This document shows, in pieces, positions 162 to 27,910 of a stretch of 35,236 nucleotides of DNA. Each line of letters starts with the position of its first letter. The first letter of the stretch is position 1. The DNA comes from a virus (Duplodnaviria; Heunggongvirae; Uroviricota; Caudoviricetes). The stretch lies in IMG/VR virus record IMGVR_UViG_2724679058_000007. One strand, 5' to 3'. A model generated the notes under the pieces. That model saw only the letters and a list, made by a program, of their open reading frames with translations, searched no databases and was not told where the DNA came from. The position numbers were made by a program, and so were the translations under genes.

Positions 162-742
162 TTACAATCCTACCGCGTCACCCTTTCTCTGACCATCTAC
201 CGGAAAATACCGGTACAACGTCGATAACCCCACTCCATAGATAATGGCCAACTGCTGACGGGTATGCCCCTTAACCAATAGCCGTGCAATCTGCTCCCGC
301 TCATGCGGCTTTAATGCGTTGGGCCTTCCACCTGTGCGTCCCTGTGCTCTGGCAGCTGCAATCCGGCAAGTGTGCGTTCAACGATCAGCTCACGTTCCAT
401 CTCCGCCAGCGCCGACATCACATGGAAAAAGAAGCGTCCCATAGCAGTGCTGGTATCAATACTGTCTGTTAAAGAGCGGAAGTGGGCACCGCGTTCATGT
501 AACTCTGATATCAATGCGATCAGGTTCTTAACGCTGCGCCCCAGCCTGTCCAGTTTCCACACGACCAGGGTGTCTCCGCTATTAACGCACTTTAAAGCAC
601 GTTTCAGACCGGGACGGCTGGCAACTTTTCCGCTCATACGGTCTTCAAAAATGCGGTCACAGTTTGCGCTTGTGAGTGCATTACGTTGTAAATCGCTGTT
701 CTGGTCGATTGTTGATACGCGGATATAACCAATGACGGCCAT
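162..742 (-). pseudogene. gin: Gin/Hin-family serine DNA invertase, reading frame interrupted by a 1-nt deletion near 350-362
   Basis: From ATG at 740-742 the product reads MAVIGYIRVSTIDQNSDLQRNALTSANCDRIFEDRMSGK...SLTDSIDTSTAMGRFFFHVMSALAEMERELIVERTLAGL, a serine-recombinase catalytic domain. It then runs into a stop at 311, while a shifted frame continues AAARAQGRTGGRPNALKPHEREQIARLLVKGHTRQQLAIIYGVGLSTLYRYF to a stop at 162-164 (HTH domain). Confidence 0.8.
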
Positions 743-805
743 CAATTCTCCTCCTCTATGTTGCGGTGGGAGGATTTTCACAGATTTCGCTACGTGCAAC
801 TGCTT

Positions 806-830
806 TTCCAAAAACCTTGGTTTGGGAGAA
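806..830 (+). repeat. hix/gix-like invertase crossover site (left)
   Basis: TTCCAAAAACCTTGGTTTGGGAGAA; its 19-bp core CAAAAACCTTGGTTTGGGA (809-827) recurs as a perfect inverted copy at 3004-3022. Resembles Hin/Gin sites as I recall them (AAACCAAGGTTTTTGA). Confidence 0.8.
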
Positions 831-1304
831 GGCTCTGCATTGCCTGTTGGTGTGCCTGTTCCGTGGCCTTCAGCCACTCCGCCAACAGGCTGGCTGAAAT
901 GCAATGGTGCGGCTTTTTCTGCTGAAGAATACCCGGAACTGGCAAAGGCTTACCCGACAAATAAATTGCCTGATTTACGCGGTGAATTTATTCGCGGCTG
1001 GGATGACGGGCGCGGGGTTGATGTTGGGCGTGCTTTATTGAGCCTTCAGGCTGGGATGCTGGAAAAGCACCGTCATATTGTTGTTGCCAATGATGGTTAC
1101 GACACAAAAGATGAATGGGAACTGGCTACGATTTTCAAAAAGACATACACACAAGGACGGGGACTTGATGCCACAAATACAGGAGGGAGTCTGATCCCAT
1201 CACCGACACTTCATTCACGAGGGAGTATCGGTAATACTGGCGGGAGTGAAACCCGTCCACGAAATATTGCATTTAACTTTATCGTGAGGCTGCATAATGG
1301 ATAA
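809..1304 (+). CDS. Alternative tail-fibre C-terminal variable region (Sv'-like), promoterless in this orientation
   Basis: ORF 732..1304 contains FSKNLGLGEGSALPVG, matching PALFVKNLGLG in the expressed fibre gene on the other strand. Only the part distal to the crossover site would be fused to the constant region after inversion. Confidence 0.6.
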
Positions 1305-1899
1305 CGCCGTATTAAATAGCGAGCTTATTGCCACGAAGGCGGGGAATATTACCGTCTATAACTATGATGGTGAAACTCGGGAATATATTTCCACTTCAAA
1401 TGAATATCTTGCCATTGGTGTCGGTATCCCTGCATATTCCTGTTTAGATGCCCCTGGCACACATAAGGCGGGTTATGCTATCTGCCGTTCGATGGATTTA
1501 AACTCATGGGAATATGTGCCAGACCATCGCGGTGAAGTTGTCTATAACACCGAAACGGGAGAATCAAAAGAAATCACAGCTCCGGGTGATTACCCTGAAA
1601 ATACAACCACTATCACCCCTTTATCTCCATACGATAAATGGGATGGTGATAAATGGGTGACCGATACTGAGGCACAGCATAGCGCCGCAGTAGACGCGGC
1701 AGAAGCACAGCGTCAGTCACTGATTGATGCTGCAATGGCTTCCATCGGTCTGATTCAGCTGAAATTACAGGCCGGACGGAAGCTGATGCAGGCAGAAACA
1801 ACCCGGCTTAACGCTGTGCTGGATTACATTGACGCGGTGACGGCAACAGATACCAGCACCGCGCCGGATGTCATCTGGCCTGAACTGCCGGAGGCGTAG
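1297..1899 (+). CDS. Tail fibre assembly protein (U'-like, partner of the alternative fibre tip)
   Basis: 200 aa; C-terminal WVTDTEAQHSAAVDAAEAQRQSLIDAA...LNAVLDYIDAVTATDTSTAPDVIWPELP is the typical Tfa chaperone motif; start overlaps the Sv' stop. Confidence 0.75.
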   Translation: MDNAVLNSELIATKAGNITVYNYDGETREYISTSNEYLAIGVGIPAYSCLDAPGTHKAGYAICRSMDLNSWEYVPDHRGEVVYNTETGESKEITAPGDYPENTTTITPLSPYDKWDGDKWVTDTEAQHSAAVDAAEAQRQSLIDAAMASIGLIQLKLQAGRKLMQAETTRLNAVLDYIDAVTATDTSTAPDVIWPELPEA

Positions 1900-2314
1900 G
1901 CCATTCAATATCTGGCGCACCGGAAGTATCGACCATTTCCAGTGCGTCCAGGTAATCCAGCCACGCGTTATACTGTACCTTTTCGGCGTCTTTCAGCCGT
2001 CCCATTGCAGCTTTTCCCGGCCATTGCTTGCTGTTCATGTACTCGTTAGCCTGGTCGATTAGCAGTTGTTTTTGTGCTTCAGTTGCTGCAACAAGTTCAT
2101 CGTGCGTTGGCGGCGGAATATCACCCCAGGCAGGAAAACCATCTTCACCAGCAATGCGGATTTTCCCTTTCGGTGGTTCGCCTGAATACTCAATAAACAG
2201 TTCTTCATCAACCTCCTTAGCATTGTCAAAATTCATTCCATTTGATTCATAAATTTCCTTCATAGCTATCGGATAGAAAGCATTTGTAGATACATCATAA
2301 AAATATTTATTCAT
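1871..2314 (-). CDS. Tail fibre assembly protein (U-like)
   Basis: Start taken at MNKYFYD; C-terminal ATEAQKQLLIDQANEYM...YNAWLDYLDALEMVDTSGAPDIEWPTPP Tfa motif; AT-rich; immediately downstream of the tail-fibre gene. Confidence 0.75.
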   Translation of the reverse strand: MNKYFYDVSTNAFYPIAMKEIYESNGMNFDNAKEVDEELFIEYSGEPPKGKIRIAGEDGFPAWGDIPPPTHDELVAATEAQKQLLIDQANEYMNSKQWPGKAAMGRLKDAEKVQYNAWLDYLDALEMVDTSGAPDIEWPTPPAVQAR

Positions 2315-2319
2315 TCTAA

Positions 2320-3501
2320 TTATCTCCCGATTGCAATCCATCGAGCGTAAATAAAGGCTGGTGATGATGTTGAATTTAATAATTTGAACTGAGTATTGCT
2401 GATAGGTTGAGCTGCAAAGCTATATACAGCTGAAGCGCCAGCGTTATCATAAGAAGCAACAAGCTGAACTGTACTGTAATTTGTAAAAGGTACGGGGAAA
2501 TTTATAGTCTGCGGATCTCCAATTTGACCAGAGGCTGCAATACCCCACTGGATAATAGTACCTCCTGGTAAAGATGCCCAGCCGGTACCGCTTGTAAAAC
2601 TTGACATATCCGGTATTTGTCCAGAACCTGTACCCACATTTTTTGTTGCCGCCGTTCCAAGCCCGGAAATATCAGATGATGTTGGTTTAAATCCTGTGTG
2701 GTACAACTTATACCAGTCAGAAAATGCAGTATCACTCGCTTTTATCCTCACACTAAAGTCAGGAATGGAACCGAGAGACGCACCGCAGATTTGCCACCCG
2801 GTTGAACCTGAGTTAGCAAATGAAATACCACCAGCCCACTGCCCAGGATAAGGACCGATATTATCTGCAGGGGCAAAATAATCAAAGCGACTGACGTCCA
2901 ACGTCGCCATAGTTCCGCTTACCTGGGCTGCCTTTATTCCAAGCCCCCACCCGCCATTTAAAGCAATTTTACCCGTTTTATCTGTGAAGGATGATTGCAG
3001 TGTTCCCAAACCAAGGTTTTTGACAAACAGCGCCGGGTCAGGAATATCAGCGCCGTTCTGGTCTTTGGCCAGCTTCTCCGCCAGCTTGTTCAACACAGTG
3101 GTCGCAAAATTCGGATCGTTGCCGAGGGCATCAGCCAGCTCTTTGAGCGTATCCAGCGTCTCAGGGGCGCTGCCTGCAAGCGCCGCAAGTGCTTTGGCCA
3201 CAAACTCCGTCGTCGCCAGCTTCTTGCTGTTATCGCTATTTGCAGGCGTAGGCGCTGTTGGTGTGCCGGTGAATGTCGGGCTGGCTTTCGGTGCGTACTG
3301 GGTATGCGGGTCTGCTGCCGCGATATGTTTCGCAAGGTCAGAACCGCCATTTTCAACCTGTTGCTTCAGGTACAGCGTGCGGCTGGCCAGTTGTTTACCC
3401 TGACGGTTAGAAATTCCGTCAGGCCCGCCCAGAACGGGGTCAGAGACCTCAATCTGGTAGATGCCCTCTTCCCACTGCGGGGTTTCAGGTAGGTTTGCCA
3501 T
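2320..3501 (-). CDS. Tail fibre protein (constant N-terminal part plus currently expressed variable C-terminal part)
   Basis: 393 aa, MANLPETPQWEEGIYQIEVSDPVLGGPDGISNRQGKQLASRTLYLKQQ; the hix-like site falls at about codon 160; the C-terminal two thirds are AT-rich and Gly/Ser-rich. Confidence 0.85.
   Translation of the reverse strand: MANLPETPQWEEGIYQIEVSDPVLGGPDGISNRQGKQLASRTLYLKQQVENGGSDLAKHIAAADPHTQYAPKASPTFTGTPTAPTPANSDNSKKLATTEFVAKALAALAGSAPETLDTLKELADALGNDPNFATTVLNKLAEKLAKDQNGADIPDPALFVKNLGLGTLQSSFTDKTGKIALNGGWGLGIKAAQVSGTMATLDVSRFDYFAPADNIGPYPGQWAGGISFANSGSTGWQICGASLGSIPDFSVRIKASDTAFSDWYKLYHTGFKPTSSDISGLGTAATKNVGTGSGQIPDMSSFTSGTGWASLPGGTIIQWGIAASGQIGDPQTINFPVPFTNYSTVQLVASYDNAGASAVYSFAAQPISNTQFKLLNSTSSPAFIYARWIAIGR
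3001..3025 (-). repeat. hix/gix-like invertase crossover site (right), inside the tail-fibre gene at the constant/variable junction
   Basis: Plus strand TGTTCCCAAACCAAGGTTTTTGACA; inverted copy of the 806-830 site. It encodes the shared KNLGLG motif in both tail-fibre variants. A compositional break (GC-rich constant part versus AT-rich variable part) coincides with it. Confidence 0.8.
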
Positions 3502-4081: not shown

Positions 4082-5177
4082 CGGACACCCCGGTCATGTT
4101 AAGAGTGATCGCCGTGCAGTTTGCCCATTCGTTTTCTGCCACCACCCGCAGTGGCGGTGTCACCAGTTCAACCTGGTACACCCCGGAGACGGACAACACA
4201 CTGATAATCTGGCTGGGAACAATATCGCGCCCCAGCGTGGCGGTACGTGATGCCACCCAGTTCTGTATGGCGCTGTTGGCGTTGTCCTTTACCGAGTTGG
4301 CATCCTGGTCGCGGTAGATCGTGATATTGGCTTCAATGGTGTAATCCACCTGCAGAGGTGTTTTAGCCCGCACGGTATCAGTAAGTGGCCTGACTTTTTC
4401 GTCAGAACAGAAACTCTCTACCAGCGTGAGGATGCTGTCGTCCGGCAGGCCGGTACTGAGCAGCGGATACAGCTCTACGGTACCGGGGACCGGGGAAAGC
4501 ACGGCAACATCGACAATGTTGGGATGGGCCTGCATGGCATGAAAGCGGTATGCCATACGGCTTCCGGCGTTGGTGAATGACTCCGGGGCCAGTTTGATAC
4601 GCTCGCGGAGCCTGTCATTGTCTTCCTGCTCAGAACCGCCAGAACTGGCCGCCATATTGGTCACCTGCAGGTCGACGTTATCAATCTCATCGAGCAACTG
4701 ACTGACCTGCGCAGGCTGCCAGCCGTTGCCTGCGGCTCCCGGCTCGGTACAGGTGGCCGTGGCATTGACAAGCAGCAATCCGGCTTTCAGCACTACGTCC
4801 GTATCGGTTGCAAAAATAATGCTGTCGGAAGCGCTGACGCGGGTACCTGCCGGAATCAGCACATCAATGGCCAGTTCCTCATCCACGGAGAACTGGAGCG
4901 TGGTGGTGGCAGGCTGCGCGGCCAGTCGGTATACACCAACCAGTTCACCGAGGTAATCAATCATCGGCTCACGGGCAAAGGCGACCAGATTCTGTTTGGC
5001 CGCTTCCTGCGCCGCCACCCTGACCAGCATTTCGCGGTATGCCCACAGGTCAATCAACAGGCGCTCAGCCTGAGCGGGGTATAGCGTCTTGCCAGTTGCG
5101 GCTTCGTACTGTGCAATCATTTCAGCCGTGATTTTGTCAGCATCACGTTCAATAAAATCGGGTTCTGTCAGCGCCAT
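4074..5177 (-). CDS. Baseplate J-like protein (Mu gp47 / P2 gpJ family)
   Basis: 367 aa; position between gpW-like and gpI-like genes; overlaps both neighbours. Confidence 0.75.
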   Translation of the reverse strand: MALTEPDFIERDADKITAEMIAQYEAATGKTLYPAQAERLLIDLWAYREMLVRVAAQEAAKQNLVAFAREPMIDYLGELVGVYRLAAQPATTTLQFSVDEELAIDVLIPAGTRVSASDSIIFATDTDVVLKAGLLLVNATATCTEPGAAGNGWQPAQVSQLLDEIDNVDLQVTNMAASSGGSEQEDNDRLRERIKLAPESFTNAGSRMAYRFHAMQAHPNIVDVAVLSPVPGTVELYPLLSTGLPDDSILTLVESFCSDEKVRPLTDTVRAKTPLQVDYTIEANITIYRDQDANSVKDNANSAIQNWVASRTATLGRDIVPSQIISVLSVSGVYQVELVTPPLRVVAENEWANCTAITLNMTGVSDG

Positions 5178-5515
5178 AGCAACTCCTGAGTCCGGGGTTG
5201 TCCGTCAGAGCCTTTCCAGCTCACCCGGAGCGTAAGATGTTCGCCGTCGACGGCGGGTTTAACCGACATAAGCTGGCAGCGAGGCTCCCAGCGGCGAATG
5301 GCATCGACGGATTCGCGCACCACATGCGGAATAGCCCGGTCAATAGGCCAGTCGATATAAAGGTGCAGATTGCTGCCGAACTCCGGGCGATGCGGGTCGC
5401 TGCCGCGAGGAGTACGCAGGATGATTTGAATGGCCTGCCAGATATCATCCAGCCCCCGGACGATTTCGCCAGGGGCCTGCAGAGCCGGTTGCCAGAATAC
5501 TGAGGTTGTTTTCAT
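5168..5515 (-). CDS. Baseplate wedge protein, GPW/gp25 family (Mu gp46-like)
   Basis: 115 aa; size and synteny; MKTTSVFWQPALQAPGEIVRGLDDIWQAIQIILRTPRGSDPHRPEFGSNLHLY. Confidence 0.7.
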   Translation of the reverse strand: MKTTSVFWQPALQAPGEIVRGLDDIWQAIQIILRTPRGSDPHRPEFGSNLHLYIDWPIDRAIPHVVRESVDAIRRWEPRCQLMSVKPAVDGEHLTLRVSWKGSDGQPRTQELLWR

Positions 5516-5569
5516 GGGGGCAGTATTGCCCCTGTGCGGGAACGCCGATATTAAAGGCGTTTAAGAAGG

Positions 5570-6082
5570 TCAGTGGGAATGGTGATTAGAGTTCGGGCCG
5601 TCAGAGAGCATGCTGCCTGTCGAGTGGGCATTGCCGTTGATTTCAAGGTTGCCGTTCACCGTGGTGGTGTCAGCGGTCAAATCAATGGTTTTCCCCTTCA
5701 GGCTGATACCCACTGCAACCTCGATCACCACATGCTCGATACCACCTTTGACTGTCAGCGTATGGGTCGCACGGTTATAGCTGAACTCTGCGCCATCCGC
5801 GTATTTCGTGCCCCGGACATTTTTGTCGCTGAACGGCGGTTTATCGACTTCTGAGTACACCGCGCCCAGAATGACACCATCCTCGCCGTTGGCATCGAGC
5901 AGCACCTCAACCTGCTCCCCCACGTCAGGGAGCCAGTAATCCTTGTTATCCTGGGTATTGCGCTGCAGCACGTTAAGCCAGTTAGTGCGCAGGTTATCGC
6001 ATTCCGGCAGACGAACGCGGGCCTGAACCTTGTCGGCATCGACGGCGCTGACCGTACCGACCTGACGGGTGACGCCTGTCAT
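5570..6082 (-). CDS. Baseplate assembly protein V-like spike (Mu gp45-like)
   Basis: 170 aa; synteny downstream of the D-like hub gene. Confidence 0.7.
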   Translation of the reverse strand: MTGVTRQVGTVSAVDADKVQARVRLPECDNLRTNWLNVLQRNTQDNKDYWLPDVGEQVEVLLDANGEDGVILGAVYSEVDKPPFSDKNVRGTKYADGAEFSYNRATHTLTVKGGIEHVVIEVAVGISLKGKTIDLTADTTTVNGNLEINGNAHSTGSMLSDGPNSNHHSH

Positions 6083-7251
6083 TATTTTTTCTCCTTTATT
6101 ACCGTGGACGTGCTGCCGTCCGGTTTATAGACGGTCAGCGTCTGGGTTTTTCCGGTCTTTTTACCTTTCTTCGCTTTGCCCTGCGTAACCGGCCCTCGTG
6201 CCACTTCCAGTTCGGTGATGTAGCCGCTGTTACGGTCAAACGCATGGCGGGCAGTAGTTATCAGCCATGGCCCGGATAACTGACCAAAGCCCACCAGTTC
6301 AATTTTGTTGCCTGCTGTTAGTTGAGGCGTCCCCATCAGCGTCAGCGAGCCGTTCTGCTGGTATTCGTTATGCCTGGCCAGCGCCGAATCTGCTTTAATC
6401 CGGGCGCTGTCCGGGTCACTGACGCGGCTGTTGACCTTCAGTGAGTCGGCACTGGTGACCTTACCGCCTTTGGTTTGTTTGTCGCTTTCGCTGGTACCGC
6501 CATCAGCTTCATAAACGATCAGCTTTTTATCGCTGCTCTTCTGGTGTTTTACCTTCGCGGATTTGTAGACGCGGTTGATGGTGTCACGCAGGGAAAAGCT
6601 AGCCACATCCTGCGGCTTTAACTGCCTGATCGGCTCCTGACCGCGCAACGTGGCAAGATGAGAAAAAACCAGCTGGTCGCTGACCACTTTCACGGCATAA
6701 CCATACTCGCTGGCCAGTCGGCGCAGGAAGCCCACGTCCGTTTCAGCATACTGGGTCACCCGGTCAATTTTGATGGACTCAATACTGCCAACCAGCTTCA
6801 GCTGATGCTTTTTGGCAATCCGTCCGGCGATGGCCGCCAGCGTGGTGCTCTCGAAACCACGACTGGATTTTGTCCGCAGGGCGTTGTTGACCGACGTGGC
6901 CACGCCCCGGATAGCGACAACGGACGCGGGCGAACTCACCTCGATCTCGTCTATAGAGAACGTACCGCAGGACAGCAGCTTCTCGCCCTGATAACCCATT
7001 TTCAGCGTCAGCGTGTCACCCTTGCCCGGATACCACTTATCCAGCCAGCGGCCATCGGTGTCGTCCAGTTCCACCTCAATGGTATCGGACTCGCTTTTGA
7101 TGTTATCGCTGTAGGTTACGCGGGTGACATAGGGGGCGATATCGGTGGTTATGTTCTTCTGCAGATACCACAGCGTGAACACCGGACTCAGAACATCGCT
7201 GACGCCAGTTAACGCTGATGCGGCTTGTGCAGTGCTGTTTATCTCAGCCAT
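6082..7251 (-). CDS. Phage late control D-like / baseplate hub protein (Mu gp44 P-like)
   Basis: 389 aa; size and synteny between tail X-like and V-like genes. Confidence 0.7.
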   Translation of the reverse strand: MAEINSTAQAASALTGVSDVLSPVFTLWYLQKNITTDIAPYVTRVTYSDNIKSESDTIEVELDDTDGRWLDKWYPGKGDTLTLKMGYQGEKLLSCGTFSIDEIEVSSPASVVAIRGVATSVNNALRTKSSRGFESTTLAAIAGRIAKKHQLKLVGSIESIKIDRVTQYAETDVGFLRRLASEYGYAVKVVSDQLVFSHLATLRGQEPIRQLKPQDVASFSLRDTINRVYKSAKVKHQKSSDKKLIVYEADGGTSESDKQTKGGKVTSADSLKVNSRVSDPDSARIKADSALARHNEYQQNGSLTLMGTPQLTAGNKIELVGFGQLSGPWLITTARHAFDRNSGYITELEVARGPVTQGKAKKGKKTGKTQTLTVYKPDGSTSTVIKEKK

Positions 7252-15160: not shown

Positions 15161-16114
15161 TTATTTCACGATGTTGGTGACGAGATACCCGGCATCGCCA
15201 CCGACCACGGCGACTTTGTAGATATCGGTATAACGGCAGTACTTCACTTTGCCGCCGACACCGTCGTATTTATCCGCCACCGGCATCCCTTTACGGCGCA
15301 GGGTGTAACCGAATGACGGCTCGTTTTCGTCGGCGCTGTCGGTGCCTGGTTGCGGTTTGCCAACGTAATGCAGCATCAGGTTGTCACCCCAGATATCGGT
15401 CGGGACTTTGTCCTTGTTCTGCGCGTCTTTCATGGAGGCCATGGAGACCGGCTCGCCGATCGCCACATCTTCCAGTTGGAAAAGGTCTTTCAGAATTTCG
15501 ATGGTGATACGCTTGCGCTCGTTGGCACCAATCGCGGCCTGAATCGCCGGGTGGAACTTCAGCAGCGACATCACGCTGGCCCCCATGGTCATCAGGTTCG
15601 GACGCAGGCCGGTGGCGTTACGCACCGCTTCGATCCCGCCTTCAATGATGCCAATCGGGTCACCCTTGCCACCGCCCCAGCGGTCAGCCGCAGCCAGCGC
15701 TTTGACGTTAGCCGCGCGATAGACGTTTTTGTCCTGGGCCAGACGGGCCGCATACAGTTCGCGCTTCAGGTTGACGCCGCTCGTCACACGGCGAATGGCT
15801 TTGGCCTCTTCGTTGAACATCGACTCCGCCTGCTCGCGATAGTCCACCGGCGCAGCCAGATCGTGCTCGTTGAGAACCAGGTCCAGCTTGCCGGTTTTCT
15901 CGCGCACCAGAACGTTACTGTCAGCCCCCACGGCACGCTCGGTGTCGTACTCCACAAAAGCGGATTTACCGAAGGTCGGCACGGTCACACCTTCCTTATC
16001 GGTAAGGACAATGGGGAAGATGCGTTCGCCGATGAACGCGGCATTTTTATAACCGCGTGCGATGCTGGTCAGCACCGGGTCAACGACGCGCTTACCCTTT
16101 AAATAGTCAGACAT
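15161..16114 (-). CDS. Major capsid protein (Mu T-like)
   Basis: 317 aa, MSDYLKGKRVVDPVLTSIARGYKNAAFIGERIFPIVLTDKEG...; follows the protease/scaffold gene. Confidence 0.8.
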   Translation of the reverse strand: MSDYLKGKRVVDPVLTSIARGYKNAAFIGERIFPIVLTDKEGVTVPTFGKSAFVEYDTERAVGADSNVLVREKTGKLDLVLNEHDLAAPVDYREQAESMFNEEAKAIRRVTSGVNLKRELYAARLAQDKNVYRAANVKALAAADRWGGGKGDPIGIIEGGIEAVRNATGLRPNLMTMGASVMSLLKFHPAIQAAIGANERKRITIEILKDLFQLEDVAIGEPVSMASMKDAQNKDKVPTDIWGDNLMLHYVGKPQPGTDSADENEPSFGYTLRRKGMPVADKYDGVGGKVKYCRYTDIYKVAVVGGDAGYLVTNIVK

Positions 16115-22574: not shown

Positions 22575-22899
22575 TACGACCTCCTGTATGGCGGTACTGC
22601 TGTACCAGTTCCAGTTTGTTGTAGAGCGCGTCCAGCTTGGCTTCGATGACCGTCTGGCCCCGGATATAATCCTCTCGGCGGACGTAGTTCAGCGGTAAAT
22701 CCGCCTTAAACCGCATAAATTCTTTTTCCAGCTCGCCCCAGTTTGAGGCGGACTGCTGCAGCGACTGCTCAAGGGAGGCGAACCGCGCCGCCTGACGCTC
22801 TTCCGCTTTACTGAACAGCCATTTGGCTATGCCACCGACAAAGCTCATGAAGGTGATGAGGAAACCCACCACCGTCCAGAATTCAACCTGCAACGTCAT
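22567..22899 (-). CDS. Small membrane protein
   Basis: Start taken at MTLQVEFWTVVGFLITFMSFVGGIAKWLF (one TM helix) followed by a coiled-coil region. Confidence 0.45.
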   Translation of the reverse strand: MTLQVEFWTVVGFLITFMSFVGGIAKWLFSKAEERQAARFASLEQSLQQSASNWGELEKEFMRFKADLPLNYVRREDYIRGQTVIEAKLDALYNKLELVQQYRHTGGRNG

Positions 22900-23549
22900 T
22901 TCTGTAATCCTTCCCGTTCGTCCAGCAGACTGTTTATCTGGCTGCGCCAGCTGCGGCACTGCTTCGCGTTGTCGATGATGTTGGCGAGGACGTCACGCTG
23001 AGAGACGCCTGAGTCGCGTAGCCAGGCGTCAGCGGTTTCAGGTCGCCCGGACGCTGCGCCAGTGCCGGTGCCAGCGGCGGCAGTTGCGTCTGAATGACCG
23101 GTGTCGACGGATGCGTTGTCATATCCGAGCGCGGCGTTGTACTGGCGCACGAAACCGCGAGTAAACACGCACTCAATGGGATGGCTCTTACCTTTTTCAT
23201 CAATCCAGCGCTGTGTGACATCGTTAATTTGCCCCTGTAGTTGTTTGTTCTGGCTCTCCAGTTGAGCAATCTGCTCAAGGTAACTGGCTTCAGCCTGCTG
23301 CCCGGCGGCTACCTGCTCCTGATACCGTTTTGCCCATGCTCGCAACGCAGCGTTCTCAAGCGTTGCCTGCTCCGTTTTGTATGTGTCGAATGCTGACTGC
23401 AACTCACTGATCGCCTTATCGCCGTCGCGCGTGGCGTTTTCATGCCCGCTTTTGTAGCCCAGGTAATAAAGTCCAATCAGAAAAGCATTTATGAGCACTG
23501 CCAGCAGCAGACTGCGCCACGGCAGATTTTTTAGCAGGTTAGTCCACAC
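22896..23549 (-). CDS. i-spanin (Rz-like)
   Basis: 217 aa with an N-terminal TM segment (SLLLAVLINAFLIGLYYLGY) then coiled coil; directly downstream of the endolysin; contains an embedded lipoprotein ORF. Confidence 0.65.
   Translation of the reverse strand: MWTNLLKNLPWRSLLLAVLINAFLIGLYYLGYKSGHENATRDGDKAISELQSAFDTYKTEQATLENAALRAWAKRYQEQVAAGQQAEASYLEQIAQLESQNKQLQGQINDVTQRWIDEKGKSHPIECVFTRGFVRQYNAALGYDNASVDTGHSDATAAAGTGTGAASGRPETADAWLRDSGVSQRDVLANIIDNAKQCRSWRSQINSLLDEREGLQK
22934..23200 (-). CDS. o-spanin (Rz1-like outer-membrane lipoprotein), embedded in the i-spanin gene in another frame
   Basis: MKKVRAIPLSACLLAVSCASTTP...: signal peptide with lipobox (AVSC) followed by a Pro-rich mature region. 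Confidence 0.6.
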   Translation of the reverse strand: MKKVRAIPLSACLLAVSCASTTPRSDMTTHPSTPVIQTQLPPLAPALAQRPGDLKPLTPGYATQASLSVTSSPTSSTTRSSAAAGAAR

Positions 23550-24267
23550 AGCTGCCGCCCCCCCATGTCAGATAACGGGGGGCCAGTTCGTGCAGGATGC
23601 GCTGCGGATAATGACGGTTCTCCCGCCAGTTGGCAGTGCTGCGTCCGGCATTCACCGTGGCGACATGACCAAACCAGCGGGTGCTGTCCAGCCCCTGCTG
23701 CGAGGCCAGCCTCTTGTCCCGCTGTACCCAGCCCAGACCGCCGTTATAGCCCGACAGCGTCATGGCCATACGCTCGCAGCCGTTGGCGGCGCTGACGCGC
23801 TGCCACAGCCAGCGGTCATAACTGACCAGCGCCCGGATGGCCCATGCCGGATTAAACGGCTCACGGCTGTTAAGCCCCGGCATCAGCTGGCTTATCCAGT
23901 CGGCGGTGGCGGGCATAAACTGGGCCAGCCCCTGAGCGCCAGCCGGCGAGACCGCATCAGGTCGCCAGCCGCTTTCCTGATGCAGTTGCGCGGCGAAATC
24001 GGCCACCGGCGCAGACAGTCCCCATTCAAGCCGGGCATTACGGATCACATCATCGCGATACTGCAGCGCAGCCTGCGGAGGCTGCGCTGCGCGGGCCTGA
24101 CTGAAGAAGCCGCCACACCAGAGCAGCCAGACAATCACCAGGTTGCCAGCAAGCTGCCACCAGAAGCTGTATTTATCGTTACGTGGTTCTCCGTGTCTGA
24201 TGGCGGTTACGCCCAGACCAAAGGCAAGCAGGATGATGAGGGTGATTTGAGGCCAGTTCATGGTCAC
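23539..24267 (-). CDS. Endolysin, lytic transglycosylase (SLT domain) with N-terminal hydrophobic segments
   Basis: 242 aa; N-terminus has two hydrophobic stretches (ITLIILLAFGLGVTAI, LAGNLVIVWLLWCGGFF); ESGWRPDAVSPAGAQGLAQFMPATA is a typical SLT active-site region. Confidence 0.75.
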   Translation of the reverse strand: MTMNWPQITLIILLAFGLGVTAIRHGEPRNDKYSFWWQLAGNLVIVWLLWCGGFFSQARAAQPPQAALQYRDDVIRNARLEWGLSAPVADFAAQLHQESGWRPDAVSPAGAQGLAQFMPATADWISQLMPGLNSREPFNPAWAIRALVSYDRWLWQRVSAANGCERMAMTLSGYNGGLGWVQRDKRLASQQGLDSTRWFGHVATVNAGRSTANWRENRHYPQRILHELAPRYLTWGGGSCVD

Positions 24268-24614
24268 AGTCCTGTAGCCACAGCCAGACAGACCGCTGCA
24301 ACAATCAGTGCACGGCGGATTAACGCAGCAGAAAATACAAGGTGAAGGCCGGTCTGCACAGGGAAGCGACCATCAGCCATCAGCCTGTCATCATGCTTCA
24401 GGTACTGACCGGGACGGGCTTTGGGGAAAAGCGAACGGTCAAGCCAGTAGCCCAATACTGCCGCCAGCGTGATGAGTGACAGCTTGTAGACAACCACCGG
24501 CAGCTGCTGGGGCGATACCAGACCGATGGTGCCGAGCAGCAGCACTGAGGTCAGCAGCCAGCCGCTGAGACGTGGCTTTTTAACAGGGGGAATGAATTTT
24601 TTCAGGTTTTTCAT
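24264..24614 (-). CDS. Putative holin / lysis membrane protein
   Basis: 116 aa with several hydrophobic helices; first gene of the lysis cassette; AAGGAGA 6 nt upstream of the ATG. Confidence 0.55.
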   Translation of the reverse strand: MKNLKKFIPPVKKPRLSGWLLTSVLLLGTIGLVSPQQLPVVVYKLSLITLAAVLGYWLDRSLFPKARPGQYLKHDDRLMADGRFPVQTGLHLVFSAALIRRALIVAAVCLAVATGL

Positions 24615-24745: not shown

Positions 24746-25069
24746 ATGACTGAACCGAAACAGACCGGTCTTAAAAAAGGGTTCCTCTTTGGGATCAGAA
24801 CCGGAGAGCAGAATAAAACTTACACGCTAAGCGTGGATGCCAGTTGCCCAACCGAGGCGATTGCAGAACTGAGAAACGCGCTGACGGCGCTTGAAACGCG
24901 AAGCAGCCATTTCGCCAGCGGAGAAAACAACGTCATGATGATTGGCAATGTGGCGGCGACATCACGATATAAAGCCGTACCTAATCCTACTACTCAGTTA
25001 TCCGGCGACCAACGAAGACTGGAAGCGGAATCAGCAGTTCCCAGAACGGTTCTTCCTCACCAGTCTTAA
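24746..25069 (+). CDS. Hypothetical protein (108 aa)
   Basis: ATG preceded by GGGGAGG; MTEPKQTGLKKGFLFGIRTGEQNKTYTLSVDASCPTEAIAELRNALTALE...; its 3' end overlaps the convergent ORF 24990..25556. Confidence 0.4.
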   Translation: MTEPKQTGLKKGFLFGIRTGEQNKTYTLSVDASCPTEAIAELRNALTALETRSSHFASGENNVMMIGNVAATSRYKAVPNPTTQLSGDQRRLEAESAVPRTVLPHQS

Positions 25070-25556
25070 CCGGGGCCGCTTCTCCCGCCCAGTAAAGCCA
25101 GGCCCGGTGATATAATTCCAGCACCGGGCAATCACTGTTCAATAACCTCATATCTCCGCGATGCACCGGCTCATCTGTGATTACTTCATATATCGGTGCC
25201 GTTCTGATTTCGTCTTCGCCTCTCTCATCGGCCAGTAATGCCCGGAACTTCCTGACTTCACTCAGATGCTGACAGGCAAACAGTGACTGATAGCGGGAAG
25301 GTTTGTCAGGAAAATGGCTACGGCGAACTAACTCAAACACCAGACCGACCAGCAGACTTCTGCTGACTCCACTGTCATCTTCCATTTTAGGGCCGGGGTT
25401 ATAGAGATAGTTATGACCGTGCTTGGAAAGACCATCGGGATACATCTGATGAAGGAAAGCGGCCAGCTCCGGCGCTTCAGGTTCGTATTTTCCGGTAATT
25501 ACATGGCAAGGCGAAGGCAGACGATTAGCGGAATCAAGTGTGTAATACGTTCCCAT
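24990..25556 (-). CDS. Hypothetical protein (188 aa), accessory locus
   Basis: ORF MGTYYTLDSANRLPSPCHVITGKYEPEAPELAAFLHQMYPDGLSKHGHNYLYNPGPKMEDDSG...; no family recognised. Confidence 0.5.
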   Translation of the reverse strand: MGTYYTLDSANRLPSPCHVITGKYEPEAPELAAFLHQMYPDGLSKHGHNYLYNPGPKMEDDSGVSRSLLVGLVFELVRRSHFPDKPSRYQSLFACQHLSEVRKFRALLADERGEDEIRTAPIYEVITDEPVHRGDMRLLNSDCPVLELYHRAWLYWAGEAAPVKTGEEEPFWELLIPLPVFVGRRITE

Positions 25557-25664
25557 TCAGAAAACAATCCTTATCGAACAAACACTGCACGTAGGTAACA
25601 CATCCAGTAAATCGCGTTAATAGAAAACAGTTATCCATAAGCCTCATCCTGACAATGAAAGAAC

Positions 25665-25696
25665 GACCAGCCCGGTGCGGTAACACCAGGCTGGTC
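25665..25696. repeat. 13-bp inverted repeat with 6-bp spacer upstream of the methyltransferase gene
   Basis: GACCAGCCCGGTG cggtaa CACCAGGCTGGTC (one mismatch); additional perfect palindrome GTCTCGCGAGAC at 25741-25752; GACCAG occurs three times in the spacer. Confidence 0.5.
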
Positions 25697-25799
25697 ATCA
25701 ACCCACAGGTATGCACTGTGAGCCGACCAGGGTTCAGTCAGTCTCGCGAGACCAGACTAGCCTGCCATATTTTCACTGATTGCAAAAGGCTTACGGATA

Positions 25800-26570
25800 A
25801 TGAAAGAACAATCTTTACCCATCGTTCCATGGATTGGCGGCAAACGTCGTCTGGCTAAGCATATTCTGCCGCTGTTCCCGGCCCATACCTGCTATGTGGA
25901 GCCGTTCTGTGGGGCCGCTGCGCTCTATTTTCTTAAGACACCCAGCAAGACCGAAGTCATTAACGATATCAACGGGGAACTGGTGAACCTCTATCGGGTG
26001 GTCAAGCATCATCTGGAAGAATTTGTTCGCCAGTTCAAATGGGCGCTGGTCAGCCGTCAGATTTACAAATGGTTGCAGGATACGCCGGAAGAAACTCTCA
26101 CCGACATTCAGCGGGCGGCCCGGTTCTACTACCTGCAGAAACAGGCGTTTGGCGGCAAGGTGGCCGATCACTCGTTCGGAACCTCCACCACAAGTGCGCC
26201 GCGCTTTAACCTCCTGCGCATCGAAGAAGAACTGTCGATGGCACACCTGCGCCTGTCGAGAACGCTGATAGAGCATCTGGACTGGCACCAGTGCATAGAG
26301 CGATATGATCGCCCGCATACGCTGTTCTACTGTGACCCACCATACTGGGGAACAGAGGGCTATGGTGTGGAGTTCGGGCTGGAAAACTATGATCACATGG
26401 CAGATTTAGCGCGAAGGATCAAAGGGAAGATGATTATATCAGTGAACGATATCCCGGAAATGCGGCAGGTATTCAACGGTCTGAACATGCAGTCGGTTGA
26501 TATCAGCTACAACCTTAAGGTAACAGGTAAACCCAGCCCGAAGAAAGAGCTGGTAATTTGTAATTTTTGA
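25800..26570 (+). CDS. dam: DNA adenine (N6) methyltransferase, Dam family, orphan
   Basis: 256 aa; N-terminal PIVPWIGGKRRLAKHILPLFP, AdoMet motif EPFCGAAALYF and catalytic DPPY (FYCDPPYWG); no adjacent restriction enzyme recognised. Confidence 0.8.
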   Translation: MKEQSLPIVPWIGGKRRLAKHILPLFPAHTCYVEPFCGAAALYFLKTPSKTEVINDINGELVNLYRVVKHHLEEFVRQFKWALVSRQIYKWLQDTPEETLTDIQRAARFYYLQKQAFGGKVADHSFGTSTTSAPRFNLLRIEEELSMAHLRLSRTLIEHLDWHQCIERYDRPHTLFYCDPPYWGTEGYGVEFGLENYDHMADLARRIKGKMIISVNDIPEMRQVFNGLNMQSVDISYNLKVTGKPSPKKELVICNF

Positions 26571-26584
26571 AAGAGGTAGTTAAA

Positions 26585-26610
26585 GGTGGTGGTGCATCTG
26601 CAGCACCACC
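26585..26610. terminator. Hairpin terminator between convergent methyltransferase and lipoprotein genes
   Basis: GGTGGTGC atctgca GCACCACC, 8-bp stem; T-rich run follows on the minus strand (ACCTTTAACTACCTCTTT). Confidence 0.5.
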
Positions 26611-26617
26611 TAAACAT

Positions 26618-27151
26618 TTAATCCTGCCTTGGACAAGTCCAATAATCATTATCTGGCTCTGGTGAATAAGCTTTCAAACAACCTGCTCGCGGGGTCTTAC
26701 CATCATCTGTCATAGGAACTTTTTCCTTATCAAGTTTCACGGTCAGGTCTCCACCAGGAACATCCGTTTTATCGAAAAAAACAGCCTGACATGCTGATTT
26801 AGATATTTTCACTTCGTGGGCATTATTTGATATGAACAAATAACAATTATGACCAGAGGCTATGTAGTCACTTGGAATATTATTTTCGTCTTTAATATGA
26901 AACTGCACCGTTGTCACCGGGCGTTCGCTATCCTCGGATACTTCGACTTTTTCAAAACTGTCCGCGTACTTATCCAGGCCGGGGAGTTGTTGGCGAATAA
27001 ACGGTAATTCGCGATTTACAACCGGATTATCTGTTTCAACGCTAAAAACCGCGTGCTCCTTAGCTGTGGTGGACGTATCAGCAGGATCGGTATTATCTCC
27101 ACACCCAGATAAAACAAATATCAACGGTAAAAATAATTTGCGCATAGTCAT
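26618..27151 (-). CDS. Lipoprotein of unknown function, AT-rich moron immediately downstream of the repressor gene
   Basis: MTMRKLFLPLIFVLSGCGDNT: signal peptide with lipobox LSGC; gene visibly more AT-rich than the phage backbone; same strand as the repressor with a 35-nt gap. Confidence 0.7.
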   Translation of the reverse strand: MTMRKLFLPLIFVLSGCGDNTDPADTSTTAKEHAVFSVETDNPVVNRELPFIRQQLPGLDKYADSFEKVEVSEDSERPVTTVQFHIKDENNIPSDYIASGHNCYLFISNNAHEVKISKSACQAVFFDKTDVPGGDLTVKLDKEKVPMTDDGKTPRAGCLKAYSPEPDNDYWTCPRQD

Positions 27152-27186
27152 GTCCTTATACCTCTAATGTTCTTAATAGGAACAGA

Positions 27187-27597
27187 TTAACCCGTATTTT
27201 TTAATCTTTCGAACGCTGCGGACAGCTCCTTAAGCTGTTTTTCCATATCAATCATTCGCTGTTTTTCCTCAGCGCCTCGCAGCAACTCTTTTCGCACCTC
27301 TGGCTCCAGTTGGTTGAGCAGCTCCAATAACTTCAGATCAGACTGGTTGAAATGCTGCTCCTGATTAGCTGGCTGTGCTTTCTCTACCCCAACAGCTTCC
27401 CCTTTACCAGTAAGTAGCCAATCTATTGATATGTTCAAATGGGTGCTTAGCGCAACAAGAGCCTCTGCATTAGGTTCTCTCTCTCCACGCAGATAGTTTT
27501 GAAGTGAGCGATATGGAATTTTTGACAAGTCTGACAATGCCTTAATTGTCAGACCCTTAGCATCCATCGCTTCGCGCAATCTCTCTTTTATACTCAT
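27187..27597 (-). CDS. Phage repressor, XRE-family HTH (c-like)
   Basis: Start taken at MSIKERLREAMDAKGLTIKALSDLSKIPYRSLQNYLRGEREPNAEALVALSTHLNISIDWLL (HTH_XRE pattern); divergent from the Ner-like gene. Confidence 0.75.
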   Translation of the reverse strand: MSIKERLREAMDAKGLTIKALSDLSKIPYRSLQNYLRGEREPNAEALVALSTHLNISIDWLLTGKGEAVGVEKAQPANQEQHFNQSDLKLLELLNQLEPEVRKELLRGAEEKQRMIDMEKQLKELSAAFERLKNTG

Positions 27598-27685
27598 TTG
27601 AACATATCTCAATTTGACATACCCGTTTGGGTGCGTACAATAGACCCAATAGAGTACATCATAACCCAACAGGAACACGGTGCAT
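27598..27685. promoter_or_regulatory. Divergent repressor/early promoter and operator region
   Basis: Plus-strand TTGACA (27614-27619), 16 nt, TACAAT (27636-27641) aimed at the early operon; direct repeats CAATAGA at 27638-27644 and 27647-27653 overlap the -10 region. Confidence 0.55.
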
Positions 27686-27910
27686 ATGAACAAACAACAA
27701 GTTCGGGCACGGCTGGTTGAAAGAGGCAGTAGCTTGCGCCAGTTCGCGCTTAACGCGGGCTATGAGCCACGAACAGTCACCCAGGCTGTCAGCCGCTGGG
27801 CAGGCAAAAGCGAACTTCCACGCGGTCGTTTGACTTATCGGATTTTGCGAGACCTTTCGGTCGCAATAGGCAAAGAAGTTACCCCCGGCATCCTCAAGGA
27901 GGCGTCATGA
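27686..27910 (+). CDS. ner: Ner-like DNA-binding protein
   Basis: MNKQQVRARLVERGSSLRQFALNAGYEPRTVTQAVSRWAGKSELPRGRLTYRILRDLSVAIGKEV; small HTH protein, first gene of the early operon. Confidence 0.7.
   Translation: MNKQQVRARLVERGSSLRQFALNAGYEPRTVTQAVSRWAGKSELPRGRLTYRILRDLSVAIGKEVTPGILKEAS

Follow-up and report, generated by a model that had tools for sequence, protein, structure and literature searches.

A lipoprotein gene directly behind the repressor of a BcepMu-type prophage: an uncharacterised, fast-evolving family with a possible role in superinfection exclusion

We analysed a stretch of viral DNA of 35,236 nucleotides (nt) (Caudoviricetes; IMG/VR record IMGVR_UViG_2724679058_000007; hereafter, the window) that, judging from its sequence, is a BcepMu-type (Mu-like) transposable prophage, and focused on the lipoprotein gene that directly follows its repressor gene. 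The core domain of the lipoprotein belongs to an uncharacterised family that sits directly behind BcepMu- or Mu-like repressors wherever genomic context was available, and the gene is the fastest-evolving and most freely exchanged of its neighbourhood. The window lipoprotein is an uncharacterised case of a known kind, the repressor-linked prophage envelope protein. We tentatively propose, with a probability of roughly 0.45, that it is a membrane-tethered periplasmic binding protein, expressed in the lysogen, that would exclude incoming phages.

The lipoprotein gene is a genuine coding gene that is conserved and specifies a canonical signal peptide II. The N-terminus of its product (MTMRKLFLPLIFVLSGC) comprises a basic n-region with R4 and K5, a hydrophobic core of 9–10 residues (residues 6–14) and the lipobox LSGC ending in Cys17, of which G16 and C17 were invariant across an alignment of 21 homologues. 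This sequence agrees in every part with the general lipoprotein pattern (basic n-region, h-region, lipobox [LVI][ASTVI][GAS]C, and Cys at about position 15–35), and the clear lipobox described in an earlier annotation made from the sequence alone (hereafter, the first-pass annotation) is borne out. The start codon is ambiguous by two codons, as PGAP (in E. coli) uses 27145 to give a protein of 175 amino acids (aa) starting MRK, with the signal peptide unchanged. The predicted mature protein has 161 aa, and the Gly at position +2 predicts transfer to the outer membrane by the Lol system. Comparison with distant copies gave ratios of nonsynonymous to synonymous substitution rates (dN/dS) of 0.15–0.20.

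Within the core domain, residues G58, G100, C103 and C121 were invariant in the family alignment. The C-terminal extension, C158 and C173 were present or absent as one unit, and two relatives (P0038 and P0043) had an insert of ~130 aa ahead of this extension. Cysteine pairs were profiled across 185 family sequences: C103 and C121 were both present in 174/179, and positions 56 and 125 held two Cys in 118 sequences, none in 43 (the window protein, with L56 and F125, among them) and a mixed state in 12. Such covarying pairs fit an oxidising, extracytoplasmic environment and a disulfide-bonded periplasmic domain. The AlphaFold2 model based on the family alignment had a mean predicted local distance difference test score of 82.6, with residues 1–31 disordered and block means of 89–96 over residues 41–170; its predicted secondary structure comprised a helix (43–55), a four-stranded sheet, a second helix (119–126) and C-terminal hairpins.

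The close homologues (n = 37), from Escherichia, Salmonella, Citrobacter, Yersinia, Morganella, Serratia and others, were all named 'hypothetical'. A profile search of 1.84 billion representatives retrieved 184 clusters (72 at E ≤ 1e-10) with a common core of ~100 aa, roughly residues 43–135, that carries the motifs PGLxKY, GHxC and KxxC. The window gene has these core motifs, C103 and C121, and lies behind a Mu-like repressor, and was assigned to the repressor-linked core-domain family on this basis. Its sole PHROG match was phrog_10002 (function unknown), the C-terminal part of which matches the window protein at 5e-14. The lipoprotein had no Pfam family at E ≤ 0.01 and no NCBIfam or PADLOC family, the best hit of a PDB profile search had an E value of 0.71 with no relative among solved chains, and no relative was found in BFVD. 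Tests by sequence or fold for membership of the Bor/Iss, TraT and Llp/Cor families were also negative. The literature on BcepMu, Bcepmuvirus, Mu-like exclusion lipoproteins and repressor-downstream lipoproteins contained no description of the core-domain family that we could find. In the phage collection, tblastn detected the gene in KP12_2 and Phi06_2974 B only, and a fused relative (P0055) had almost no matches there. The anchoring of family members varied, including lipoproteins (with G, S or D at +2), proteins secreted via signal peptidase I and proteins with an N-terminal transmembrane (TM) segment, and further forms combined a zinc ribbon with a TM segment or were ~320-aa proteins with an N-terminal cytoplasmic domain and a membrane span. 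This variation argues for a periplasmic target rather than a surface-exposed role.

The genomic context of the family was profiled in 38 loci besides the window, 30 of them IMG/VR contigs and 8 others that include Morganella, Pseudomonas chlororaphis, Serratia, Xenorhabdus and Pseudocitrobacter. In all 38, a Mu-like repressor precedes the family member on the same strand, and the loci of Pantoea (L007) and Apirhabdus (L008) showed the same gene order. The arrangement in relatives was transposase ← IclR-like ← ner-like, then repressor → (Flk_N) → family member, with gaps in the repressor operon that were often only 4–14 nt, or with overlapping stop and start codons. In the window the two genes are on the same strand, with the end of the repressor stop codon at 27187 and the lipoprotein ATG at 27151, and the co-oriented position 35 nt past the repressor that the first-pass annotation had reported is correct.

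The first-pass annotation had further proposed that the lipoprotein gene is co-transcribed with the repressor and that this transcript ends at the hairpin located 7 nt past the lipoprotein stop. A promoter scan of the minus strand from 27151 to 27600 detected no sigma-70-like site, the Serratia cassette (see below) shares only 8 nt upstream of the lipoprotein ATG, and transcription of the gene seems to rely on the promoter of the repressor. The hairpin is stable (-19 kcal/mol, z = -3.1), but its U-tract is weak and non-canonical, and the terminator scan made no call. Where dam is convergent, every lineage has a stable hairpin in the short convergent gap, each time of unrelated sequence, and the one in Xenorhabdus has A and T runs on both sides; the window hairpin is a probable bidirectional terminator. 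Given the missing intergenic promoter-like site, the kept position of the hairpin and the operon order conserved in 38/38 loci, co-transcription ending at the hairpin is the parsimonious explanation, and we infer a hairpin-terminated two-gene operon. Gene order, the promoter scan and the hairpin position agree with the proposal.

The GC content of the lipoprotein gene is 41.8% (35% at third codon positions), compared with 55.6% for the whole window, in line with the AT-richness noted before. Only 1.7% of 534-nt segments of the window are equally AT-rich, and besides those overlapping the lipoprotein gene they are all in the tail-fibre chaperone region (starts ~1900–2300). The repressor gene is AT-rich as well (GC 44.8%), and the low-GC island thus comprises the repressor and lipoprotein pair.

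Comparison of sister prophages indicated extensive exchange directly behind the repressor. Relative to a Morganella prophage, the neighbouring proteins were 85–95% identical but the lipoprotein only 43%; nucleotide homology covered the repressor, the spacer and the first ~46 codons (signal peptide and linker), stopped at 27013 and resumed at the dam stop. In Serratia sp. Ag1, only 27159–26613 (the ribosome-binding site and the gene) was similar (78.6%), and the backbone transposase was 50% identical. The Serratia locus (L009) has two tandem family members behind an unrelated repressor, namely a 324-aa Flk_N–TM–core fusion (4870–5844) and a 175-aa lipoprotein (6004–6531) that is 74% identical to that of the window and was acquired as a gene-sized cassette. 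PhiKM (Bcepmuvirus) has a different repressor and no counterpart of the lipoprotein gene. Nineteen E. coli genomes have a homologous repressor (~81% nt identity) followed by genes for a YejK/NA37 protein and a 401-aa protein instead of the lipoprotein gene (hereafter, KE50-type). The KE50-type breakpoint is at 27167, just ahead of the ribosome-binding site, and sister-phage homology resumes at 26551–26591; this end of KE50-type homology and the start of the Serratia cassette homology at 27159 place the recombination breakpoint of sister prophages within the 35-nt spacer.

The first protein of the KE50-type cassette matches the YejK/NA37 nucleoid-associated family at 1e-80. The 401-aa protein matches NCBIfam DS1_2_antiphage at 3e-21 with 75.9 bits, below the curated cut-off of 315 bits, and has a weak match to KwaA. 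Because of this sub-threshold match, the cassette is considered only related to DS-1. The DefensePredictor study (PMC13092281) confirmed by experiment the antiphage activity of a YejK-domain system. The cassette resembles the window lipoprotein gene in occupying the same slot, after the homologous repressor and before the convergent dam, and differs in being a two-gene system whose unrelated proteins are cytoplasmic or membrane-bound. Since sister prophages carry this DS-1-like cassette there, the slot behind the repressor looks like a hotspot for defence cargo.

Between close pairs, the lipoprotein gene had dN/dS of 0.45–0.81 (dS 0.02), compared with 0.00–0.09 for its neighbours (dS 0.05–0.29), which suggests recent transfer and relaxed or diversifying change, based on ~8 substitutions. 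Among 13 enterobacterial-type loci, the mean pairwise identity was 0.49 for the core domain, similar to the immunity genes (0.33 for the repressor and 0.49 for ner) and unlike the backbone (0.74–0.88). Far from being a recent foreign insert, the family evolves fast and has long resided in the immunity operon of BcepMu-like phages, in hosts from Pseudomonas to Enterobacterales. The designation 'moron' given in the first-pass annotation is accordingly only partly apt: the atypical composition and the presence/absence polymorphism (PhiKM, KE50-type prophages and the Serratia cassette) fit it, whereas no promoter of its own was found for the gene, which comes from an old immunity-operon family.

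In many relatives, the gene of a Flk_N-like membrane protein intervenes between those of the repressor and the family member, or the Flk_N-like protein and the family member are fused. Flk_N was identified via PF27202 (precomputed), NCBIfam Flk PRK10715 (8e-14 and 2e-15) and phrog_5825, and the Flk_N–TM–core fusions include P0055, P0093, P0112 and the longer Serratia protein. The relatives in phrog_10002 are such fusions, and their N-terminal half matches positions 24–158 of Salmonella Flk (Fluke; PRK10715, 2e-15). Flk itself has no periplasmic domain; the window protein, unlike the fusions, has a lipid anchor in place of the Flk_N half and the membrane span. In relatives with Flk_N, the C-terminal tail of the repressor and the N-terminus of Flk_N carry one common short Gly-rich motif, which changes in step between lineages (FHGxVGQ..G.I.N or NRxAGRDYxE; L016 5976–7793, L019 5874–6984, L020 6463–7957 and L009 4376–5844). 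The copies are FHGAVGQAVAGNITN, FHGEVGQAAGGDINN and FHGNFGQVAGGNIYN in L016, and NRAAGRDYHE and NRVAGRDYYE in L019; a third protein, a small membrane protein, also bears the motif in Pseudomonas loci such as L016. The window repressor ends in a coiled coil and has no tail motif, and the window has no Flk_N gene; repressors without the motif, including this one, are not accompanied by a Flk_N gene.

Under the exclusion reading, the lipoprotein gene would be transcribed from the repressor promoter as the second cistron, ending at the hairpin, and its product would be made in the lysogen. Following Sec export and lipidation, the disulfide-bonded domain would be held on a periplasmic tether of ~15–20 residues and, from the Gly at +2, would be transferred by Lol to the outer membrane's inner leaflet. 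It would then bind a component that crosses or faces the periplasm, either the injection machinery of a related phage or a host envelope protein that the phage needs. Superinfecting phages would thereby be excluded without cell killing, and the lipoprotein would act as a specificity-bearing partner to repressor immunity. We favour this reading because of the position in the immunity operon, the immunity-like hypervariability, the exchange as a cassette and the tandem paralogues, together with the defence-like alternative cargo in the same slot, the fusion of Ltp repeats in a relative and the non-conserved anchoring.

Several results weigh against exclusion. The homology and structure searches that the first-pass annotation had recommended as a check revealed no likeness to a known exclusion or conversion protein, and specifically none in sequence or fold to Ltp, Bor, TraT or any solved chain. 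The pairing or fusion with cytoplasmic Flk_N in many relatives, with an N-terminus that mimics the repressor tail, suits a role in regulation or signalling better than that of a simple periplasmic blocker. For close pairs, the elevated dN/dS comes from very few substitutions (~8). The divergence of the core domain was correlated with that of the repressor, ner, IclR-like, transposase, dam, holin, SLT and gp27 genes, and only generic phylogenetic signal was obtained (r 0.37–0.77), which singled out no partner among the genes in reach. We also know of no described case of lipoprotein-mediated exclusion of Mu-like contractile-tailed phages. Any role of the window gene in superinfection exclusion or lysogenic conversion, as named by the first-pass annotation, is one that we infer from position only.

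The closest functional analogue would be Ltp of Streptococcus thermophilus phage TP-J34, with Llp and Cor next. Ltp is a lysogeny-module lipoprotein encoded downstream of the repressor that is transcribed in the prophage and blocks DNA injection (PMC3952083). Both are prophage lipoproteins whose genes belong to the lysogeny module and follow the repressor closely on its strand (crh, orf3 and ltp in TP-J34), and two Ltp repeats (PF07553, 5.5e-28) are fused to the core domain in one distant relative (P0049) only. The window protein, however, has no PF07553 match (Pfam, E ≤ 0.01), its predicted fold is a different helix-plus-sheet arrangement, and its setting is the Gram-negative periplasm and a Mu-like contractile-tailed phage, and its exclusion function is a proposed one. 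Like Llp (T5) and Cor (phi80/N15), outer-membrane lipoproteins that inactivate FhuA, it is a small phage lipoprotein, for which Gly +2 predicts the same destination. Llp works from the periplasmic side, at the outer membrane's inner leaflet (bioRxiv 2026.03.26.714494). The window protein is larger than Llp and Cor, with no match in Pfam, NCBIfam, PADLOC or solved chains, and the family members with an inner-membrane anchor or none argue against an obligatory outer-membrane receptor partner.

The Flk_N partners raise the alternative that the lipoprotein is the stand-alone remnant of a trans-envelope regulatory module, in which an ancestral Flk_N, membrane span and periplasmic domain, in one or two proteins, communicated with the repressor. 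A periplasmic cue, such as envelope damage or an incoming phage, would have been coupled to the lysis–lysogeny switch, and the lipoprotein would keep the ligand-binding part and modulate or titrate the cue. This agrees with the fused and split versions (Flk_N–TM–core, or Flk_N then lipoprotein) that directly follow the repressor, with the motif of the repressor tail and Flk_N N-terminus that co-varies between lineages, and with the absence of Flk_N genes alongside motif-less repressors, that of the window included. Yet the window lacks both Flk_N and the repressor motif, a lipoprotein alone cannot signal across the inner membrane, and the stand-alone form, in many Enterobacterales, is stable and evolves under purifying selection, which points to a self-sufficient periplasmic function; we regard a remnant as unlikely, if the least improbable of the alternatives to exclusion. 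In relatives, the lineage-by-lineage presence of the repressor-tail motif on the Flk-like N-terminus suggests that the Flk-like membrane protein may dock with, mimic or compete with the repressor. That the core domain forms the periplasmic part of a hitherto unnoticed trans-envelope module connected with the BcepMu-like repressor is a more speculative idea, to which we give little weight. An incoming phage, envelope damage or a host signal could feed through such a module into the lysis–lysogeny decision or exclusion, with the window lipoprotein as its autonomous periplasmic half.

Lysogenic conversion apart from phage defence, for instance serum or complement resistance (as by Bor/Iss, or TraT-like), stress tolerance or immunity to a periplasmic toxin, would suit a lipoprotein predicted to be expressed in the lysogen and sorted to the outer membrane (Gly +2), from prophages of both commensal and pathogenic Enterobacterales. 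We consider it improbable, slightly more so than a remnant, as the confinement of the family to Mu-like immunity operons across soil Pseudomonas, Xenorhabdus, Serratia and gut bacteria, hosts that differ greatly, indicates a phage-centred rather than a niche-centred role; many members are anchored in the inner membrane or soluble, such that surface exposure is not conserved, and Pfam gave no Bor or TraT family match. Far less probable again is a lysis- or virion-associated protein expressed in the lytic cycle (spanin-like, structural, or inhibiting in the periplasm the SLT endolysin of the phage itself). The gene does lie on the same strand as the holin/SLT/spanin-like cassette and ~2 kb upstream of it, and in Pseudomonas relatives the repressor operon leads straight on towards the gp27, terminase and portal late genes, but in the window the hairpin, the convergent dam and a DUF2441 gene separate it from the lysis cassette, which has a lipoprotein of its own. 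Moreover, phages that share these lysis and structural genes can lack the gene (PhiKM) or have another cargo in its place (KE50-type), and its divergence does not track that of SLT or holin. As a separate candidate, an Rz1-type o-spanin was rejected, as the gene is neither in nor next to an i-spanin gene, being ~2 kb off and beyond the hairpin and the convergent dam.

If the exclusion reading is true, the gene would provide a first handle on envelope-level protection of lysogens by BcepMu- and Mu-like prophages of Enterobacterales and Pseudomonas. The analysis defines a family of 184 clusters that had neither annotation nor structural relative, and the cargo hotspot behind the repressor, with its lipoprotein or DS-1-like cassette, is a useful place to seek more genes for defence. 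In relatives, the repressor-tail motif and the Flk_N fusions hint at a link from the periplasm to the immunity switch.

Table 1 Features of the lipoprotein gene, its product and the surrounding prophage (window coordinates unless a locus is named).
Feature	Coordinates	Strand	Remarks
Lipoprotein gene, 177 aa	26618..27151	minus	From the list of open reading frames; 'hypothetical protein' in KP12 and PGAP annotation
Signal peptide II, lipobox L14-S15-G16-C17	27101..27151	minus	Cys17 codon 27101-27103
Extracytoplasmic core domain (residues ~36-135)	26747..27046	minus	Motif LPxIR..PGLDKY ... IPxxYxAxGHxC ... KxxCxxxxxD
C-terminal extension, second Cys pair C158/C173	26621..26746	minus	Specific to the enterobacterial subfamily (alignments)
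Spacer	27152..27186	minus	Ribosome-binding motifs GAGG (27161-27164) and AAGGA (27153-27157)
Hairpin GGTGGTGCTGCAGATGCACCACCACC, GC-rich	26585..26610		Between convergent lipoprotein and dam genes; 7 nt past lipoprotein stop
CI/DicA-like HTH_3 repressor, 136 aa	27187..27597	minus	Pfam HTH_3 3e-12, Phage_CI_repr 2e-06
D12-class Dam methyltransferase	25800..26570	plus	Pfam MethyltransfD12 1.5e-27; convergent with lipoprotein gene; right-hand edge of cargo slot
Alternative cargo (KE50-type)	L014 (E. coli KE50) 1239-3454; L015 (AREA_C483) 1234-3449		Slot corresponds to window 26552-27166
Divergent control region	27596..27695		Early promoter-like TTGACA-16-TACAAT at 27614-27641 (plus), 11/12 matches (promoter scan)
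Copies of motif GATATGWWCAAAT	27428-27440, 27596-27608, 27683-27695, 26829-26841		
Early operon	from 27680	plus	Divergent; ner-like, IclR-HTH, DUF3102, DDE transposase, MuB-like ATPase, GemA, Mor
Late operon	about 300-24614	minus	Holin (24264-24614) and SLT lysin, then terminase, portal and tail genes, then tail fibres
Lipoprotein of the lysis cassette	22896-23549		

The late and early arms of the prophage are separated by the DUF2441 (minus), Dam (plus), lipoprotein (minus) and HTH_3/CI-like repressor (minus) genes (Table 1). The repressor also matches PHROG repressor families and NCBIfam RstR/DicA-like, and its gene is divergent from the early operon (ner-like, transposase and MuB). Across the 35-kb window, the motif GATATGWWCAAAT was confined to 26829–27700, except for one match with two mismatches at 15214–15226. 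The copies at 27596–27608 and 27683–27695 are candidate operators, because they lie on either side of the early promoter-like site and are retained in phages whose repressors are related. Within the lipoprotein gene, a 17-nt repeat (26830–26846) matches the ner start region beyond chance; it was rejected as an operator because it is kept in homologues with unrelated repressors and encodes a conserved C(Y/F)LFISN peptide. Coding for a conserved peptide likewise accounts for the motif copy in this gene (26829–26841).

The window was 100% identical to 'Klebsiella phage KP12 clone KP12_2' over the 3.1 kb compared, and the repressor–lipoprotein stretch (26571–27700) was 100% identical to several E. 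coli chromosomes. The lipoprotein gene is rare in E. coli, with one chromosomal copy in each of 22 among 5426 complete genomes. The KP12_2 record (OM835952.1) is filed under Vequintavirinae in GenBank and has the content of a BcepMu-type transposable phage. It is probably a co-induced prophage sequenced alongside a lytic phage, and its taxonomy label thus looks wrong.

The DUF2441 gene between dam and holin (24990–25556; phrog_5663) is variable too: the window and the loci of Apirhabdus and Pseudocitrobacter have it, and the Morganella and KE50-type prophages do not. Between the dam and DUF2441 starts lies a hairpin on the minus strand (25662–25699) with a 17-bp stem that includes 9 GC pairs, and this one was called by the terminator scan. 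At the other end of the window, 311–3501 has a layout like that of the Mu G segment, in which opposed pairs of tail-fibre and tail-fibre-chaperone genes (732–1899, plus; 1871–3501, minus) are bracketed by a 24-nt inverted repeat (804–827 and 3004–3027). They adjoin a serine recombinase open reading frame (311–904, minus; Resolvase domain 8.7e-44) that stops only ~14 residues past the catalytic-domain match; from this length, the usual C-terminal DNA-binding region may be missing.

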